From: Nitrosopumilaceae archaeon | GTDB taxonomy: Archaea; Thermoproteota; Nitrososphaeria; Nitrososphaerales; Nitrosopumilaceae | Direction: 5' to 3' | Assembly: GCA_035685445.1 (NCBI GenBank) | Contig: DASSAK010000008.1 | Coordinates: 13,131 to 77,130, forward strand | DNA: 64,000 nucleotides | Shown here: in pieces, positions 22,704 through 31,283 of the stretch | How the letters are laid out: each line of letters opens with the position of its first letter | Numbering within the stretch: position 1 is the stretch's first letter | Notes under the pieces: generated by a model | Told to the model about the DNA's origin: nothing | The model's database searches: none | Seen by the model: only the letters and a program-made list of their open reading frames with translations | Program-made: the position numbers and the translations under genes

Positions 22704-22777
22704 TGGACTGAGAGGGATTTGAACCCTCGACCCCCCGCGTGCAAGGCGGGTATACTACCAGTCTATACTATCAGCCC
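22704..22777 (-). tRNA. tRNA-Ala(UGC)
   Basis: GGGCTGA-TA-GTAT-AGACTGGTA-GTAT-A-CCCGC-CTTGCAC-GCGGG-GGGTC-GAGGG-TTCAAAT-CCCTC-TCAGTCC-A. The G3-U70 alanine identity pair is present. Confidence 0.9.
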
Positions 22778-23441: not shown

Positions 23442-23530
23442 GGGCCGGTAGCTCAGCTTGGCTGGAGCGTTCGACTGATAAATCTACTTCAGACATCGAA
23501 AGGTCGTGAGTTCGAATCTCACTCGGCCCA
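23442..23530 (+). tRNA. tRNA-Ile(GAU) with a 14-nt canonical intron
   Basis: GGGCCGG...TTCGA-CTGATA[intron]A-TCGAA-AGGTC-GTGAG-TTCGAAT-CTCAC-TCGGCCC-A. Anticodon GAT at 23477-23479. Confidence 0.9.
23481..23494 (+). other. tRNA-Ile intron (37/38)
   Basis: Helix CTGA/TCAG is flanked by 3-nt bulges TAA and ACA next to the anticodon stem, a textbook bulge-helix-bulge arrangement. Confidence 0.8.
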
Positions 23531-24930: not shown

Positions 24931-24981
24931 ATCAAGTGGAGGAGGTGGGATTTGAACCCACGAACCCCTAAGAGACGGGAT

Positions 24982-24997
24982 CACCCATTTTTATGAT
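24982..24997 (-). other. tRNA-Leu intron 2 (16 nt), canonical 37/38
   Basis: Helix CTTA/TGGG (two G-U pairs) with bulges AGA and TGA next to the anticodon stem. Confidence 0.75.
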
Positions 24998-25011
24998 CTT
25001 AAGTCCCGCGT

Positions 25012-25034
25012 GTCCAAAAACTGAAAACAGTTTT
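25012..25034 (-). other. tRNA-Leu intron 1 (23 nt) inside the 3' strand of the D stem
   Basis: Perfect 4-bp helix CCAA(25037-25040)/TTGG(25014-25017), 3-nt bulges AGA and ACA, and an inner 6-bp hairpin AAACTG-TTTT-CAGTTT. Confidence 0.75.
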
Positions 25035-25155
25035 CTTTGGCCAGGCTTGACTACTCCTCCGCTCAAAATAGCAAAAAGATGCTGGAAATTTAACAGTTGA
25101 GTTTTTTCAAAAATTAATCAAGAATTATAAGGATTTTCTACAACCGGAACATATC

Positions 25156-25229
25156 GCTTCGATAGCTCAGCCTGGTAGAGCGTTACCTTGGTAAGGTAAA
25201 GGTCGCGGGTCCGGATCCCGCTCGAAGCT
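25156..25229 (+). tRNA. tRNA-Thr(GGU)
   Basis: GCTTCGA-TA-GCTC-AGCCTGGTA-GAGC-G-TTACC-TTGGTAA-GGTAA-AGGTC-GCGGG-TCCGGAT-CCCGC-TCGAAGC-T. The T loop is unusual (TCC instead of TTC). Confidence 0.88.
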
Positions 25230-26093
25230 TTAATAATTTTTTATCAATAATTCAGAATGACCAGTTCGTTTTCTAGAATTAGAATTAATTGCACGATTTG
25301 CTTCTATTTCAAAAACCTTCCAAGAGTTATTTGAGAATGTTTTGAGAACATCTTCTGAATTTGAATTTGATAGCATGAATTTGCATCCTTCAGAATCTAG
25401 TTTTTTACATAGTTTAAGGAGTCGTTTAAGATCATCATATGTGAAATCTCGATTTGTGTAGCTAGTGAAATTTGCAGTAGAGCTAACTGGTTGGTATGGA
25501 GGATCAAAATATACAAAATCATCTTTTTTTACATCATCCAAAGTTGCTGAAAAATCCCTACAGTTGATTTGAATTTTTTTAGATTTTAGAGCAGAGCTGA
25601 CAGAGCGAAGGTTTTCCTCGTTTACAATATTTGGATTTGTATACCGACCCAATGGAACATTGAATTTTCCCTTACTGTTAACTCGGTATAATCCATTAAA
25701 ACAGGTTCGATTTAGGAAAATGAGTCTTGATGTTTTTTCCACCTGGTTTTTTGGATCTGACTCTCTAACATCATAATAGTAGGATTTTTTATTTTTGAAA
25801 TATTTTCTAGAGTGAGATTTTAGAGATGAAATCAGTTCATCAACTTTGTCTCTGATTGTGACATATGCTAAAACCAAATCAGAGTTTAGATCAGATACAA
25901 TGCATTTTTGTTTTGGATGATTTGTTACCACATGAAACAGCATTGCGCCTCCTCCCAAAAATGGCTCAAAAAATGTACCATAATTATCTGGAAGGTGCTG
26001 ATTCAGAATTGGAATTAATTGTCTTTTTCCACCTGCCCATTTTACAAAGGGTTTCGGATATGATGTTGCAATCTGGGTATATTCCTGTTTCAC
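25230..26093 (-). CDS. dam: DNA adenine methyltransferase, Dam/D12 class (N6-adenine)
   Basis: FVKWAGGKRQLIPIL near the N-terminus, FEPFLGGGA SAM-binding loop and the FDPPY catalytic motif. No adjacent endonuclease gene. Confidence 0.85.
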   Translation of the reverse strand: MKQEYTQIATSYPKPFVKWAGGKRQLIPILNQHLPDNYGTFFEPFLGGGAMLFHVVTNHPKQKCIVSDLNSDLVLAYVTIRDKVDELISSLKSHSRKYFKNKKSYYYDVRESDPKNQVEKTSRLIFLNRTCFNGLYRVNSKGKFNVPLGRYTNPNIVNEENLRSVSSALKSKKIQINCRDFSATLDDVKKDDFVYFDPPYQPVSSTANFTSYTNRDFTYDDLKRLLKLCKKLDSEGCKFMLSNSNSEDVLKTFSNNSWKVFEIEANRAINSNSRKRTGHSELLIKNY

Positions 26094-26277: not shown

Positions 26278-26928
26278 TTAGTCCCACTTTGACCAAGCGG
26301 CCATCCATCTATACGTCCACGTTGTTAGCTTACATCCTAACGCTGCAAACGTAACGGACAATACTGCACCAGCACCTGCACCAAGCGCGACCGGACTGTT
26401 ATAGAACTTTCCGACCTGCGGTTCTATTGGTGTCATGTATGGTGGCAATGTTGGTCTTGGATATTTGAATGCCGTTTCTAGTGGGTCTGCTACTGTTATC
26501 AGGTTTACCATGTTGAACAATGGCAATGACATTCCTACCAGTACTCCGCCAAACAGTATCAACGAGTGCTTGTTTCTCTTTGTTGCCCAATATGCCAAGT
26601 CCAACAGCATTGCTGATGGTAACCATACTGGTGTAACAATGAAGTCATATGGATATCCAAGTGCAAACCATGCACCTTTTGCAACCCACGTGTATACTGT
26701 CATAATCAGGGCATAATACGTAGCTGTTCCCGGTACGCCAGTGAATGTTAGATAATAACATGCTCCGACGGTAAGCATCAACGTTTGTGATATAGAGAAT
26801 ACTACAAACGAAGTCCAGGCCCAATCAGTATAGAAAATGTAGTCACCTGCGTTAATTGTTAACAGTGTTGAGTTTACCGCAACTACTACAATGAATAAGT
26901 AGTGGGTACATCGTCTAAGCCAGACCAT
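26278..26928 (-). CDS. amoA: ammonia monooxygenase subunit A (archaeal)
   Basis: 216 aa. MVWLRRCTHYLFIVVVAVNSTLLTINAGDYIFYTDWAWTSF... is recognisably the Nitrosopumilus-type AmoA sequence. Confidence 0.97.
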   Translation of the reverse strand: MVWLRRCTHYLFIVVVAVNSTLLTINAGDYIFYTDWAWTSFVVFSISQTLMLTVGACYYLTFTGVPGTATYYALIMTVYTWVAKGAWFALGYPYDFIVTPVWLPSAMLLDLAYWATKRNKHSLILFGGVLVGMSLPLFNMVNLITVADPLETAFKYPRPTLPPYMTPIEPQVGKFYNSPVALGAGAGAVLSVTFAALGCKLTTWTYRWMAAWSKWD

Positions 26929-26951
26929 TAACCAGTAGAATATGGGGTCAG

Positions 26952-26959
26952 TATATAAA
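26952..26959 (-). promoter_or_regulatory. putative TATA box of amoA (TTTATATA on the minus strand), 24 nt upstream of the ATG
   Basis: The spacing implies a transcription start at or next to the start codon (leaderless mRNA). Confidence 0.4.
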
Positions 26960-27068
26960 ATTTTAGCAAAAGTTCATGATCGGATAAAAGGCCAGAACCT
27001 AATTTCTGTAATAAATTTGATAATACTTGACAGTAAGATTCTAGTTAATAAAAAGAGAAAAAATGGAT

Positions 27069-27431
27069 TTAAAATCCCACGTACAAGGAGATGATTACAG
27101 TGAGTACTGCTACTCCAGCAACTGTTGCAGCAACTACACCATTGCTATTCTTATTGGAACCTTCCTGCATTACTTTAACACAGAAGATGTAACCAATTGC
27201 TTCAATGATAGTTAGGACAATAAATGCATAGTGACCGCTGTTTGTTGGATATGCCCATGGATAATAGAAGTATCCTGCTGCAGTACCACCAAAAGTTGCT
27301 AACCATGCAGCGATGAATGATAGAGTAATCATACCCGTCATGTTTTCGACGCGTTTGCCAATCATCCTTTCGACATCAGCGCTGCCGGCGCCACCGCCGC
27401 CTCCTGATCCAAATCCTTTTGGAAGAGTCAT
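27069..27431 (-). CDS. amoX: AmoX, small membrane protein between amoA and amoC
   Basis: 120 aa with a Gly-rich N-terminus followed by hydrophobic helices. It occupies the conserved amoA-x-amoC position known from marine AOA. Confidence 0.8.
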   Translation of the reverse strand: MTLPKGFGSGGGGGAGSADVERMIGKRVENMTGMITLSFIAAWLATFGGTAAGYFYYPWAYPTNSGHYAFIVLTIIEAIGYIFCVKVMQEGSNKNSNGVVAATVAGVAVLTVIISLYVGF

Positions 27432-27544
27432 TTGCGATATATCGAGAGAGAATCCTATTAAGTCTTTCCTAAAATATCATGAATACTCGATCAGGTTTTT
27501 TGAAAAATATAAAAAGAAAAGAGGTGCTTATCGCACGTTTTTGC

Positions 27545-28108
27545 TTATGGTATGGATCTGCTGTACAATTTGCCTTCCAGGGCCATCTTGTACATTTCAG
27601 CAACATAGGGGTTTTCACCTGGTGTTTCTGCGCCAAGTTCAACCAGTCTTGCGTAAACCCTAACTACGTATGCTAGAGCGCCCATAAAGGCTACGACAAC
27701 ACCCATGTTAAACATCCAGTGATTTGGTACTGCAAAGATTTCTTCAACAAACCAGAAGTGCCACATCTCATTGATTCCAATTGTGAACATTGTTGCAAGG
27801 TAACCAAGAATGGTCATCTTCAAACCAGTGTTCATTGAGTTATTTGGACCTCTGAGAATTGGTACTCTTCTATCATAGATTGCTACAGAACCCCAACCCA
27901 ATGGTAGAGCCACAAAGTGACTGTATAACCACCAGTGTGCTGGTGTAAATGCACTATCTCTGATAGATGTTTGATGTAGAGAACCATCAACGAAGTTGTC
28001 TACTTCGACTGAAGCAGCAGTTGATCCCATCGCAATAACGATAAGCCAGATTTTCTTAAGTCTTTGAATCTCGACTTCTTTTGGGATTAATGCTGGCATT
28101 TGTGCCAT
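27545..28108 (-). CDS. amoC: ammonia monooxygenase subunit C (archaeal)
   Basis: 187 aa. MAQMPALIPKEVEIQRLKKIW...HWWLYSHFVALPLGWGS...NEMWHFWFVEE is a typical archaeal AmoC. Confidence 0.95.
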   Translation of the reverse strand: MAQMPALIPKEVEIQRLKKIWLIVIAMGSTAASVEVDNFVDGSLHQTSIRDSAFTPAHWWLYSHFVALPLGWGSVAIYDRRVPILRGPNNSMNTGLKMTILGYLATMFTIGINEMWHFWFVEEIFAVPNHWMFNMGVVVAFMGALAYVVRVYARLVELGAETPGENPYVAEMYKMALEGKLYSRSIP

Positions 28109-28131
28109 GTGTGTAGTGCTTGTTTTTTGAG

Positions 28132-28138
28132 ATATAAA
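28132..28138 (-). promoter_or_regulatory. putative TATA box of amoC (TTTATAT on the minus strand), 24 nt upstream of the ATG
   Basis: Same TATA-to-ATG spacing as amoA. Confidence 0.4.
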
Positions 28139-28370
28139 GGAAGGGTTCCAAATATTATAAAATTATTAAAAATTTTATAAGAAAAGCGCTTATTTCTTTC
28201 TATTTTTTATATGATTTGATAACAAAAAAATCAAAAAATCAACCAATCAAAAGAGTAGTTCCATTGTTAATCATTGATGTCAATCATTAAGATCTCGTTC
28301 TCGATCCACGACATCAAGGTAAAACATATAACGATGGTTGTTACCTTTCTGATTAATTAACGGGATAACT

Positions 28371-28943
28371 ATGGTCGTCGATAAAAAACTAATTGTTATT
28401 GGACTCGGAATGGTTCTAGCACTAGGAACAATTGGATTCAATTGGGTTGAAACAATTCTACCAACTGCTGAAGCACACGGTGTCCAAGCACAACTCCAGA
28501 GTCGTTTCATTAGAATCGAAGATGAGACATTCAACAGACAATCACTTACAACTGGTGAAAACATTTGTCTTTCAGGCCAACTTGTTAGCTTGATTGAAAG
28601 AGACAGCAGAGCATGGGTATCAATCTTCTCGGAATCAACTAATGCTGGAAACAGATGGGAGATTCTAACAAGAGATCCACCTGGCAATGTATTTGACATT
28701 CCAGGAAACGAAGTAGTACCATACCAGATATGTGCAATGGCACTTGAGCCAGGAGTATATCATGTACATACTCAGCTTAATGTGGCAAACGTTGGTCCGG
28801 GACTAGGTCCAGGTCAAACAGTTGTGGTTGATGGCGAATTTATCTTAAAACCAATCCCATACACCAACATTGCATATCAATCAATCATGATTGGTGTTGG
28901 ATATGTCATTACATTTGCGACTCGACCCTGGCAAGTAATCTAA
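28371..28943 (+). CDS. amoB: ammonia monooxygenase subunit B (archaeal, short form)
   Basis: 190 aa. N-terminal signal/TM, then AEAHGVQAQLQSRFIRIED (the N-terminal His of the Cu site) and a C-terminal TM. Divergent from amoC, as in Nitrosopumilus. Confidence 0.93.
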   Translation: MVVDKKLIVIGLGMVLALGTIGFNWVETILPTAEAHGVQAQLQSRFIRIEDETFNRQSLTTGENICLSGQLVSLIERDSRAWVSIFSESTNAGNRWEILTRDPPGNVFDIPGNEVVPYQICAMALEPGVYHVHTQLNVANVGPGLGPGQTVVVDGEFILKPIPYTNIAYQSIMIGVGYVITFATRPWQVI

Positions 28944-29052
28944 ACTCCCAACCTTCCTTTTCATTTTCTAAAATAATTACCTGACATCATTCATACCATC
29001 CTCATACTTTATGAATCAAAGTTTTATCTCATACGAAAATGTTACAATATAG

Positions 29053-29370
29053 ATGATGCTAAGTTTCAAAATTCTCAAACTTAACATAAATCAAAGTTAT
29101 TTTTTTGGAGAGGTAGAATACAAACAACAAGGATTCAAAATTAATGTGCAAAACGAAAGAAGAGGCAAAGTTCTAAAATTGCCTTTTGGCTTTTCTCCAA
29201 AAAAAGAAAGAATGATTGTTAGATTTACCGGTCCTGGCGATATTTTTGTTGAAGACTTTTTGCCATACAAGGGAGAATCCGAATGGGTAGAAATTGACTC
29301 TGATGAAATAACTTACTTTATTGCAGATCATCAGGATCAGTTTGATACTTTAGAAATAATGGATGAATAG
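29053..29370 (+). CDS. hypothetical soluble protein downstream of amoB
   Basis: 105-aa ORF with no TM segment. Confidence 0.45.
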   Translation: MMLSFKILKLNINQSYFFGEVEYKQQGFKINVQNERRGKVLKLPFGFSPKKERMIVRFTGPGDIFVEDFLPYKGESEWVEIDSDEITYFIADHQDQFDTLEIMDE

Positions 29371-29398
29371 TCATAGAAACGACTTTAAGTAATTTGTA

Positions 29399-29950
29399 TT
29401 GATTCATGACATGTTTTGGCCTGGAATGGGTGATCCCGCAAAGCGGAAAAAGACTTTACGATTTCTTGGCATTACAGCGGCAATTGCTATTTCAGTAGGT
29501 CTTGGTAGTTTAGCTATTCAACAATATCTCAATATTGATAATCCTTTGAAAGTTTGTATTGATAATAGAGACATTAACTACAAAATTTCTGCAACACTAG
29601 AACTATACGTTGATGGTCAAAAAGCTGAGATTCCAGCAAATATTGGAATAGCGGATAGATGTACACATTCTCTGTACACTTTGTCTAATGATGGAACAAT
29701 TTATGCAGAATGGGATGAAGAGTATCCATTTGAAATTGGTCACTTTTTCTGGACATGGACTACATATCATGAAGGAGGATTCCCAATGAGAGATATGGAT
29801 CAAGGAAAATCGAAAATAATTGTAAATGGGCAAGAGTCATCCCGTTTCATTAGTGCTCCACTGGAGGATGGATACCATTATCGAGCCGAATTCATTACAA
29901 AGGAATATGATGAATCCAAGGATTCAGACTTTTTGCCACCTGATGCATAA
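29399..29950 (+). CDS. membrane-anchored hypothetical protein downstream of amoB
   Basis: 183 aa. One N-terminal TM (LRFLGITAAIAISVGLGSLAI) followed by a Trp/Tyr-rich extracytoplasmic domain. Confidence 0.5.
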   Translation: MIHDMFWPGMGDPAKRKKTLRFLGITAAIAISVGLGSLAIQQYLNIDNPLKVCIDNRDINYKISATLELYVDGQKAEIPANIGIADRCTHSLYTLSNDGTIYAEWDEEYPFEIGHFFWTWTTYHEGGFPMRDMDQGKSKIIVNGQESSRFISAPLEDGYHYRAEFITKEYDESKDSDFLPPDA

Positions 29951-30004
29951 TACAGAGAATAGCCAACGCTAATTCTAGATAAAATAATGAAAAGAAGAAA
30001 GGGT

Positions 30005-30274
30005 TTACCAGTATTTTCCGTTGTCTGGAATTAGACCAATACCTTCTCTTTCAAAGTGTCTATCTAATTCATCAACCCATCTCTCACGGTTGTCTTTGTA
30101 TGACCATCCATGGACACGAAGCCAAAATGATATTATTGCTAACAAGAATATTGTGAACATCATTGTGCCAAAGATGTAAATCATTACATCAAAGAATAAT
30201 GGGTCATAGTTTGGTCCTAGCTGTCCTGTCAATGATGACAGTATACTAAGGAATATTCCCACGATAGGAGTCAT
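30005..30274 (-). CDS. small two-TM membrane protein
   Basis: 89 aa. Two hydrophobic helices (IVGIFLSILSSL..., MIYIFGTMMFTIFLLAIISFW) and a charged C-terminal tail. Confidence 0.5.
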   Translation of the reverse strand: MTPIVGIFLSILSSLTGQLGPNYDPLFFDVMIYIFGTMMFTIFLLAIISFWLRVHGWSYKDNRERWVDELDRHFEREGIGLIPDNGKYW

Positions 30275-30385
30275 TGTTTAGACAACGCTATTAGTGCGTT
30301 ATATAGATTTCTGCGATTCTCAAAAAAACAGGGATCAGCAATATACACTAGAGATGTGAATAAAATAAGAAAGAATGGTTCTTGC

Positions 30386-30715
30386 TTAGCCTCTTCCTTG
30401 AGCGGCATACTTGCCAGATCTTCCTCTAAAGAAGAATGCTCCAGCGATTCCACCAAAGACTGCACCTGCTATAGCTGCAGCACCAAGAACACCATCAGCG
30501 TCTAGGTATGGTGTACCAGAACCACTTGCTGGGTTTGCTTCAGCAGCTTCGATTCGACGTCTGGCTAGTTCAAGGGTTTCTTCAAGTGTGCCAGCACCTG
30601 TTTCTCCAGCACCGCCAACATTACCCATGTATTGAGCATATGCAAATCCAATGAATCCCATACTGCCCACTGCAACCAGCGTCAACATAATTGATAAAAC
30701 AATTATTTTTTTCAT
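30386..30715 (-). CDS. small secreted/membrane protein, Gly/Ala-rich with a C-terminal TM
   Basis: 109 aa. Signal-like MKKIIVLSIMLTLVAVGSMGFIGFAYA and C-terminal GVLGAAAIAGAVFGGIAGAFFF. Locally GC-rich like the amo genes. The overlapping ORFs 30271-30465 and 30411-30635 are treated as artefacts. Confidence 0.55.
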   Translation of the reverse strand: MKKIIVLSIMLTLVAVGSMGFIGFAYAQYMGNVGGAGETGAGTLEETLELARRRIEAAEANPASGSGTPYLDADGVLGAAAIAGAVFGGIAGAFFFRGRSGKYAAQGRG

Positions 30716-30833
30716 AGCGTTTACCTGCTCAGATGAGCTTTATGTTAATATTTAACTTTTCTTTTTACTCCGGATTTTGATTTTTGGGAAGGGATCAAGT
30801 AACGTTTAATTTTGTTCTAAAGTCAGGCAGGAC

Positions 30834-31283
30834 ATGGGACGAATGCATACTCACAGACATGGAAAATCTCATTCGATTAGACCTGTAACTGTACGATCAC
30901 CATCTTGGGTTTCTCAGGATTCAAAGCAGATTGAGGAACTTGTGGCAAAGTATGCAAAAGAGGGTTTAACCCCAAGTCAGATTGGAATAAAGCTTCGCGA
31001 TCAGCATGCAATTCCTCTTGTCAAACCTGTAACAAAAAAAACAATTATGCAGATCTTAGAAGAAAATAATCTTAAACCAGAAATTCCTGAAGACTTGGAT
31101 AACATTGTAAAAAAGGCAGTCGGTTTACAAAGACATCTAAAGTCTAACAAAGGAGATAGTCGAAATGTTAGATCGCTTGAGCTAATCGAAGCTAAAGTTC
31201 ACCGATTAGCATCTTATTACAAAAAAACAGGTCAACTTGCTAAAAACTGGAAATATAAATCCGTGGTCGCTCAACTAGAGTGA
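30834..31283 (+). CDS. rps15: 30S ribosomal protein uS15 (S15P/S13e)
   Basis: MGRMHTHRHGKSHSIRP is the characteristic archaeal S15 N-terminus. Confidence 0.9.
   Translation: MGRMHTHRHGKSHSIRPVTVRSPSWVSQDSKQIEELVAKYAKEGLTPSQIGIKLRDQHAIPLVKPVTKKTIMQILEENNLKPEIPEDLDNIVKKAVGLQRHLKSNKGDSRNVRSLELIEAKVHRLASYYKKTGQLAKNWKYKSVVAQLE

Follow-up and report, generated by a model that had tools for sequence, protein, structure and literature searches.

The small genes around amoB in a Nitrosopumilaceae archaeon: probable AmoY, AmoZ and AmoE-like subunits and a neighbour of the Nmar_1504 type

The amo locus and its conservation

The genes for archaeal ammonia monooxygenase (AMO), together with four small open reading frames (ORF1 to ORF4), occupy positions 26278-30715 of a 64,000-nucleotide stretch of DNA from a Nitrosopumilaceae archaeon (assembly GCA_035685445.1, contig DASSAK010000008.1, positions 13,131 to 77,130 of the forward strand), which we call the window. 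The eight ORFs and the adjoining rps15 gene were recovered from the ORF list of the window (Table 1). An earlier sequence-only reading of this DNA had described here a complete AMO locus in which all four small ORFs were candidates for additional subunits, with AmoY and AmoZ suspected among them. The eight ORFs and their positions are borne out by the ORF list and by the Pfam matches of AmoA, AmoC and AmoB, which score 393.3, 53.6 and 25.6 bits against gathering cut-offs of 25.6, 26.7 and 22.7, all above threshold, and the exact AmoB sequence is found in NCBI as HET6516781.1, annotated as subunit B. The strands of the amo genes had been read correctly, and ORF3 and ORF4, on whose strand that reading was silent, lie on the minus strand. 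We consider it very likely that the region is the canonical amo supercluster of the Nitrosopumilaceae, in which amoA-amoX-amoC (minus strand) are followed by amoB-ORF1-ORF2 (plus strand) and by amoY-amoZ (minus strand, with amoZ transcribed first), rps15 forming the boundary, with ORF3 encoding AmoY, ORF4 encoding AmoZ, ORF2 by elimination encoding AmoE, and ORF1 encoding a protein that is not a subunit.

Identities were determined by pairwise BLASTP in both directions between the window proteins and the amo segment of Nitrosopumilus maritimus SCM1 (CP000866.1:1364991-1375305). The genes Nmar_1500-1507 of this strain and their neighbours show the same ten-gene layout on the same strands, from a methyltransferase gene through rps15, whereas the window comes from the metagenome-assembled genome of a different species in which ORF2 has strongly diverged. 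The N. maritimus counterpart of amoX likewise encodes 120 residues and lies between amoA and amoC. In the window AmoX combines a Gly-rich N-terminus with hydrophobic helices, hydropathy giving two strong segments and one weaker one; the Gly-rich stretch (MTLPKGFGSGGGGG…) precedes the helices and is conserved, the same stretch being present in N. maritimus.

For comparison, 80 species-level Nitrosopumilaceae loci were fetched around relatives of amoB and searched with the window proteins. The order amoA-amoX-amoC, amoB-ORF1-ORF2, ORF3-ORF4, rps15 is nearly universal among them, as the synteny check suggested by the sequence-only reading would have it. The counts beside amoB, out of 80 loci, are 63 for ORF1, 77 for ORF2, 72 for ORF3 and 68 for ORF4, and where an ORF was missed the contig in many or most cases ends there. 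Median dN/dS (the ratio of nonsynonymous to synonymous substitution rates) against orthologues is 0.11 for ORF1, 0.14 for ORF2, 0.07 for ORF3 and 0.20 for ORF4, in the same range as that of amoB (0.12) and amoX (0.10). As the four ORFs are under purifying selection and kept in synteny, their sequences identify them as real protein-coding genes and not chance ORFs. Pfam, NCBIfam and PDB sequence searches gave no significant match for any of the four, the PDB copy searched being without entry 9XJ2 of N. maritimus AMO.

Two published studies bear on these genes. AmoY and AmoZ were described by Hodgskiss 2023 (PMC10030591), and the N. maritimus enzyme has been solved by cryo-electron microscopy at 2.88 Å, with eight subunits in each protomer (PDB 9XJ2), in a bioRxiv preprint dated 1 September 2026 (10.64898/2026.08.31.748207). 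In the preprint AmoX, AmoY and AmoZ are renamed AmoD, AmoF and AmoG, and a new subunit with a single transmembrane segment and a C-terminal domain is named AmoE; AmoA to AmoG are all encoded in the cluster. The eighth subunit, AmoH, forms a cytoplasmic trimer, rich in flexible loops, that closes the complex at its base; it was built as poly-Ala with no gene assigned to it, so that to call the locus complete was too strong. The product of Nmar_1504 is described there as a soluble beta-barrel encoded in the cluster and not incorporated in the complex. Thus the sequence-only reading was right to count ORF2, ORF3 and ORF4 as subunit candidates and wrong to include ORF1, and its expectation that at least two conserved neighbours would stay unexplained no longer holds, as both are described in the preprint, one as a subunit and the other as a non-subunit. 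Complex membership is taken here from this literature, and our own analysis contributes orthology, synteny, purifying selection, topology from hydropathy, a fold model of ORF2 and the upstream boxes.

Table 1. Genes and sequence elements at the amo locus (positions in the window; identities are to N. maritimus SCM1).
Feature	Position	Strand	Description
tRNA gene	22704-22777	-	
tRNA gene	23442-23530	+	
tRNA gene	24937-25060	-	
tRNA gene	25156-25229	+	
Dam-like DNA adenine methyltransferase	25230-26093	-	287 residues; DPPY motif; Pfam MethyltransfD12 in orthologues
amoA	26278-26928	-	216 residues; Pfam Archaeal_AmoA, E 1.8e-118; 94% identity to Nmar_1500
amoX (AmoD of the preprint)	27069-27431	-	120 residues; 77.5% identity to Nmar_1501
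amoC	27545-28108	-	187 residues; Pfam AmoC, E 2.6e-14; 98% identity to Nmar_1502
amoB	28371-28943	+	190 residues; divergent from amoC; Pfam Monooxygenase_B, E 9e-6; 82.5% identity to Nmar_1503
ORF1	29053-29370	+	105 residues; orthologue of Nmar_1504
BRE/TATA-like box of ORF2	29375-29393	+	AGAAACGACTTTAAGTAAT; family consensus AGAAAGGACTTTAAGGAAT; about 20-40 nucleotides before ATG 29411
ORF2	29399-29950 as called; likely true start 29411	+	183 residues as called, 179 from the likely start; orthologue of Nmar_1505
ORF3, identified as amoY (AmoF of the preprint)	30005-30274	-	89 residues; orthologue of Nmar_1506
BRE/TATA-like box of amoY	30294-30312	-	AGAAATCTATATAACGCAC; consensus AGAAATGTATATATCGCAC
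T7 run between amoZ and amoY	30322-30328	-	Read from the sequence; T-rich in most orthologous loci
ORF4, identified as amoZ (AmoG of the preprint)	30386-30715	-	109 residues; orthologue of Nmar_1507
Conserved element directly 5' of the amoZ ATG	30716-30727	-	CAGGTAAACG.T / CAGGTAAACGGT; conserved across loci
BRE/TATA-like box of amoZ	30744-30763	-	AAGAAAAGTTAAATATTAAC; consensus AGAATAAAAGTTAAATAAGT; conserved across loci
rps15 (ribosomal protein S15P/S13e)	30834-31283	+	Synteny anchor beside amoZ; 79% identity to the N. maritimus gene with Ribosomal_S13_N/S15 Pfam matches

AmoY, AmoZ and their upstream regions

The product of ORF3 is 94.4% identical over all 89 residues to Nmar_1506 (ABX13402.1 / A9A4U8_NITMS), the N. 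maritimus protein to which exact look-ups of AmoY-like Nitrosopumilus sequences also led, and that of ORF4 is 71.0% identical to Nmar_1507 over 107 of its 109 residues (E-value 1.5e-51). According to Hodgskiss 2023, AmoY corresponds to NVIE_004540 / Nmar_1506 and AmoZ to NVIE_004550 / Nmar_1507; in the Nitrosopumilaceae amoYZ lie one to two genes from amoABCX, and in strain SCM1 the locus tags of amoA/X/C/B (RS08050/55/60/65) and amoY/Z (RS08080/85) leave exactly two genes between them. In the window, likewise, ORF3 is separated from amoB by two genes and lies immediately downstream of ORF4 on the strand they share; ORF4, upstream of amoY, adjoins rps15, as in Nitrososphaera viennensis. As the identities to Nmar_1506 and Nmar_1507, the amoY-amoZ-rps15 order shared with N. 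viennensis and the locus tags of Hodgskiss 2023 all agree, ORF3 can be identified by its sequence as AmoY and ORF4 as AmoZ; the comparison with the N. maritimus proteins that the sequence-only reading had proposed thus found both subunits it suspected. NCBI labels the two genes 'hypothetical protein' (VFG25_00995 and VFG25_01000).

The likeness of N. viennensis AmoY and AmoZ to the window proteins consists in their being small helical proteins with a single transmembrane segment and similar sizes (89 and 109 residues here; 82 and 123 residues in the supplement of Hodgskiss 2023, which gives the order amoY, amoZ, rps15p), encoded with amoZ directly upstream of amoY and beside rps15p. In N. viennensis, unlike the window, the pair lies far from amoA, amoB and amoC. 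AmoY has been found in the AMO complex of N. viennensis, N. cavascurensis and N. maritimus (PMC10030591; 10.64898/2026.08.31.748207), and in the published structure of N. maritimus AmoY and AmoZ pair up to form a clamp joining adjacent protomers of the trimer.

ORF3 has one strong transmembrane segment at about residues 25-56, preceded by a short N-terminal hydrophobic stretch of about 15 residues and followed by a highly charged C-terminus. The two transmembrane segments once read into it are thereby reduced to one, in agreement with the single segment published for AmoY. Among 63 distinct sequences almost all positions show conservation of 90% or more. AmoY would then cross the membrane once, its N-terminus facing outwards and its charged C-terminus lying inside the cell.

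The extracytoplasmic N-terminal module of AmoY (…TGQLGPNYDPLF[FY]DV…) was also seen in two other small proteins, P0249 (L084:10001-10309 and L086:1435-1743) and P0254 (L081:2143-2484). Both carry the highly conserved AmoY-like module and a transmembrane helix, and then a different cytoplasmic tail with a zinc ribbon (CPxCG…CxxC). The gene for P0249 belongs to a signalling cluster (VWA-FHA-Ser/Thr kinase-PP2C) with an integrase nearby and no amo genes around; over its first 105 or so coding nucleotides it resembles amoY, but in its promoter it does not. It is conceivable that P0249 could be a sensor or a decoy docking at the AmoY site.

The topology earlier read into ORF4, a signal peptide and a C-terminal transmembrane segment in a Gly/Ala-rich protein, is confirmed by hydropathy. 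Residues 1-27 (MKK…AYA|QY) resemble a Sec-type signal peptide, the soluble part holds a conserved helical stretch (TLEE.LE…RR), and the hydrophobic Gly/Ala-rich transmembrane segment at residues 73-97 is followed by a basic tail. AmoZ would thus be made with a signal peptide and have a brief helical region outside the cytoplasm, a single Gly/Ala-rich transmembrane helix and a basic tail inside. Hodgskiss 2023 predicted a disulfide in the soluble domain of N. viennensis AmoZ. No cysteine occurs in ORF4, in 61 of 64 AmoZ sequences of the Nitrosopumilaceae or in N. maritimus AmoZ, and as the latter also lacks cysteine, the sequences indicate that this disulfide is a lineage-specific trait of the Nitrososphaera models and does not define the family. 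In N. piranensis and N. adriaticus the orthologues of AmoZ carry the automatic UniProt name 'PDGLE domain-containing protein'. A Pfam scan of ORF4 reported no PDGLE domain at E-values up to 0.1, and the name is probably a marginal automatic assignment to the Gly/Ala-rich transmembrane segment.

When upstream regions were aligned on their start codons, ORF2, ORF3 and ORF4 each showed a strongly conserved A-rich or TATA-like box at a fixed distance, resembling the archaeal pair of transcription factor B recognition element (BRE) and TATA box. That of ORF2 is conserved in nearly all orthologous loci, including loci without ORF1, and that of amoY in essentially all of them, including the high-GC Cenarchaeum-type loci. 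From these boxes we infer three independent promoters, for ORF2, amoY and amoZ, with transcripts of ORF2 and amoY that would have short leaders or none. The run of seven T between amoZ and amoY is possibly an archaeal terminator for amoZ.

Codon usage agrees with this promoter picture. The GC content of third codon positions (GC3) is raised in amoA, amoX, amoC and ORF3 (0.36-0.42, with both amoX and ORF3 at 0.36) over a background of 0.21-0.28, and the synonymous divergence dS is low in amoA, amoC and ORF3 (0.75-0.83) compared with ORF1 and ORF2 (1.8-1.9), whose GC3 of 0.24-0.26 is at background. High GC3 together with low dS is a pattern typical of very highly expressed genes. The raised GC content of ORF4 that the sequence-only reading had likened to that of the amo genes is real (0.43-0.48), and yet it is not the codon bias of amoA, amoC, amoX and ORF3. 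With GC at 0.61 and 0.54 in codon positions 1 and 2 and GC3 at a background value of 0.25, it arises because 37% of the residues of the protein are Gly or Ala. In N. maritimus amoY is highly expressed and amoZ less so (Hodgskiss 2023), which the contrast in codon bias between ORF3 and ORF4 fits.

ORF2, the Nmar_1505 orthologue

ORF2 occupies the same position as Nmar_1505, between Nmar_1504 and amoY, and its product is 49.4% identical to Nmar_1505 over 176 residues, the full length (BLASTP E-value 1.4e-59). The gene was called from 29399, but as its homologues are called at 172-183 residues, mostly 173-179 among the matches listed, and as the conserved box lies 20-40 nucleotides upstream of ATG 29411, the start is almost certainly this latter codon, which the sequence makes the most likely one. 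The N-terminal transmembrane segment and the aromatic-rich ectodomain that the sequence-only reading had described stand, and the start it had used does not.

The family shares an invariant N-terminal WPGMGDPxKR motif (WPGMGDPxKRKK in ORF2) within a short cytoplasmic N-terminus, one transmembrane helix and an ectodomain of about 135 residues, with a Cys pair, C49 and C84, that is invariant in the family alignment; a W/F cluster is also among its invariant residues. The ectodomain of the window protein carries a short insertion, YHEGG, which is absent in some Nitrosopumilus sequences. An AlphaFold2 model built from the alignment has a mean predicted local distance difference test score (pLDDT) of 83.8 and consists of a helix at residues 9-42 and a mixed alpha/beta domain, the ectodomain reaching about 90. 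In a Foldseek comparison with PDB no match reached an E-value of 1e-3, and the best were weak matches to beta-grasp proteins (E-values 7e-3 to 0.1, target-normalised template-modelling score about 0.5), namely the ubiquitin-like proteins HVO_2177 (2M19), SAMP1, MoaD and Urm1 and the DUF4430-like 3U7Z. The domain of ORF2 is larger than these, membrane-anchored and extracytoplasmic and has two invariant Cys; the resemblance is one of fold class and not of family membership. In the model the ectodomain is beta-grasp-like in its fold, without a close relative among solved structures. By the positive-inside rule this domain would face the exterior, as does the cupredoxin domain of AmoB, and ORF2 would then encode a type-II membrane protein with a beta-grasp-like, likely disulfide-bonded ectodomain on that side of the membrane.

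We infer by elimination that ORF2 is the single-transmembrane AmoE of the preprint. The legend of its Fig. 1a places AmoA to AmoG in the cluster and excludes only Nmar_1504, which leaves Nmar_1505 as the sole unassigned gene for a membrane protein, and the single transmembrane helix and C-terminal domain of archaeal AmoE (PDB 9XJ2) are matched by the ORF2 model. The preprint describes AmoE as specific to marine ammonia-oxidizing archaea and not equivalent to bacterial AmoE. Homologues of ORF2 also occur in Nitrosotenuis (e.g. Ca. N. cloacae), Nitrosarchaeum and genomes of the CSP1-1 type, so on the sequences the AmoE-like gene looks family-wide in the Nitrosopumilaceae rather than strictly marine.

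We also considered that ORF1 and ORF2 might be mere neighbours that genome streamlining has kept next to amoB with no functional link to AMO. Their dS and background GC3, unlike those of amoA, amoC and amoY, speak for this, as do the fast evolution of ORF2, reflected in its identity to the N. maritimus protein, and the distant relatives of ORF1 that are unlinked to amo genes (see below). For ORF2 this is countered by the preprint, which places a cluster-encoded protein with one transmembrane segment and a C-terminal domain in the cryo-electron microscopy map, and by its near-constant position beside amoB and its own conserved promoter-like box; for ORF1, by the pull-down with AmoB domains reported in the preprint and by adjacency to amoB across genera. 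We regard it as very improbable that the two genes are bystanders.

ORF1 and the surroundings of the locus

ORF1 is 70.6% identical to a protein of 104 residues from N. maritimus SCM1 (ABX13400.1 / WP_012215887.1), which is Nmar_1504, as its accession stands two below that of AmoY, WP_012215889.1. The protein is acidic (isoelectric point 4.8), has no Cys and reaches a 19-residue hydropathy maximum of only 0.58, which confirms that it is soluble, as had been read from the sequence. No signal peptide or transmembrane segment was found in ORF1, in Nmar_1504 or in about 60 orthologues, and the ORF1 frame cannot be extended upstream. Because it has no export signal, the protein most likely stays in the cytoplasm, as far as its sequence can tell. 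Its pattern of hydrophobic and polar residues suggests an all-beta protein with about nine beta-strands; a single-sequence AlphaFold2 model made without an alignment was unusable (pLDDT 34).

About 11 of the 80 species lack ORF1 or keep it in decayed form, with only 147-255 bp between amoB and ORF2; the complete genomes OY763927.2 and OZ243037.1 have no ORF1 beside amoB. One such locus without intact ORF1 (L058:8570-8825) holds a remnant in which N- and C-terminal pieces are fused by an internal deletion (E-value about 2e-11). In two others (L039:8570-8727 and L068:8570-8717) short C-terminal traces of ORF1 were seen by eye, for which the best BLAST E-values of 2.1 and 0.56 give no support. 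As there is a remnant in one locus and there are possible short C-terminal traces in others, the losses look independent and not the result of one ancestral absence. ORF1 would accordingly not be an obligate AMO subunit, in agreement with the preprint.

An exhaustive phmmer search of ORF1 against 1.84 billion representative proteins returned 58 clusters, almost all of them stand-alone proteins of about 100-135 residues, with no bacterial AmoB or PmoB among them. The ORF1 family profile found nothing significant in PDB and no PmoB or AmoB chain, the best match being to an unrelated protein at an E-value of 0.23, and hhalign gave the comparison of the ORF1 profile with that of archaeal AmoB a probability of 0.1%. 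No Pfam family recurred across 31 members of the ORF1 family. A relation to Pur-alpha (PDB E-values 0.75-1.3; Pfam PurA at 0.048 in one of the 31 members) was dismissed as chance, as it did not recur across the family. An apparent fusion with AmoB was also set aside, in P0407, a protein of 237 residues with the ORF1 domain at its C-terminus, whose N-terminal part reads by eye like an aminotransferase fragment and which is probably a chimeric gene call. No second copy of ORF1 was found within the window.

A scan of metagenomes for ORF1 relatives, made with a narrow family alignment, revealed a divergent branch of 26-37% identity on marine low-GC contigs (L087-L109; e.g. L095:5944-6333), away from amo genes. 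Conserved beside it are genes for Dus, an MqnC/CofH-type radical S-adenosylmethionine enzyme, a TPR protein, a WelO5-like 2-oxoglutarate oxygenase, an SRPBCC protein and an amine oxidase. One candidate for the host of this branch would be heterotrophic marine Nitrososphaerota.

The preprint likens Nmar_1504 to the second, C-terminal cupredoxin domain of AmoB, reports a pull-down with AmoB domains and proposes a role in ammonium capture; it also finds the gene missing from terrestrial ammonia-oxidizing archaea. ORF1 would then be the detached second cupredoxin domain, which is extracellular, binds the AmoB cupredoxin domain and tunes the capture of ammonium. Its location directly after amoB on the same strand, its acidity and its all-beta pattern are in keeping with this. 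In bacterial AmoB the C-terminal cupredoxin domain is periplasmic, whereas export is not expected of ORF1 and its orthologues, and no sequence similarity between the two is detectable, whether in the profile search of PDB chains, in the phmmer clusters or by hhalign. As the protein has no export signal, has been lost repeatedly and has divergent marine relatives that lie among unrelated genes and not near amo, an extracellular role of Nmar_1504 fits badly, and we think it unlikely that ORF1 is such a domain.

That ORF1 encodes AmoH itself is extremely improbable. The subunit was modelled without an assigned gene and lies on the cytoplasmic side, where the signal-less product of ORF1 is expected, and ORF1 is the sole gene of the cluster with no place in the structure. 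Yet Nmar_1504 is, by the authors' account, left out of the complex, AmoH is rich in loops whereas the ORF1 pattern is one of beta-strands, and the ORF1 gene is lacking in about 11 species of the Nitrosopumilaceae and, by the preprint, in terrestrial ammonia-oxidizing archaea.

We regard the product of ORF1 as probably a dispensable accessory or regulatory factor rather than a subunit. One tentative and in itself rather doubtful proposal is that it would be a dispensable cytoplasmic partner in the assembly or regulation of AMO, acting at the cytoplasmic face of the complex or even accounting for the AmoH density, and not an extracellular relic of the AmoB cupredoxin domain.

Some points weigh against the identification of the locus as a whole. 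The preprint is not peer-reviewed, and the membership of ORF2, ORF3 and ORF4 in the complex is, for this organism, taken over by analogy from the work on N. maritimus. 'Nmar_1505' is never printed in the preprint, so that the assignment of AmoE depends on elimination from a figure legend, and as ORF2 is only 49% identical to Nmar_1505, details of its interfaces may differ. ORF3 and ORF4 are linked to AmoY and AmoZ of N. viennensis by gene order and size and not by sequence alignment, and the role of ORF1 is argued mostly from negative evidence. Weighed against the orthology, conserved order and selection described above, these points leave us with the supercluster, including AmoY, AmoZ, an AmoE-like protein and a non-subunit of the Nmar_1504 family, as the very likely content of the region.

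Directly beyond amoA lies a gene for a Dam-like methyltransferase, an adjacency that is kept in 52 of the 80 loci with varying orientation; the N. maritimus copy is 72% identical. Just upstream of the methyltransferase gene and the amo block there are four transfer RNA (tRNA) genes, two of which are overlong (89 and 124 nucleotides) and probably contain introns. ARAGORN gave no anticodon for one of these two and missed the other, which was found by Rfam only.

The locus is a well-known one that the sequence-only reading recognised correctly; descriptions of AmoY and AmoZ date from 2023, and those of the other two neighbours from 2026. What is added here is the orthology for this genome, the start of ORF2, the fold of its ectodomain and its Cys pair, the upstream boxes, the contrast in codon bias between amoY and amoZ, the wider distribution of the AmoE-like gene and the topological objection concerning Nmar_1504. 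For the window the result is mainly one of annotation, as four genes that NCBI calls 'hypothetical' can be renamed amoY, amoZ, amoE-like (Nmar_1505 family) and Nmar_1504-like. Were ORF1 indeed a cytoplasmic factor, the role in ammonium capture proposed for Nmar_1504 would be topologically wrong. Archaeal AMO catalyses the opening reaction of nitrification both in the ocean and in many soils, so that for biogeochemistry and inhibitor design it is important to know which subunits the enzyme contains.

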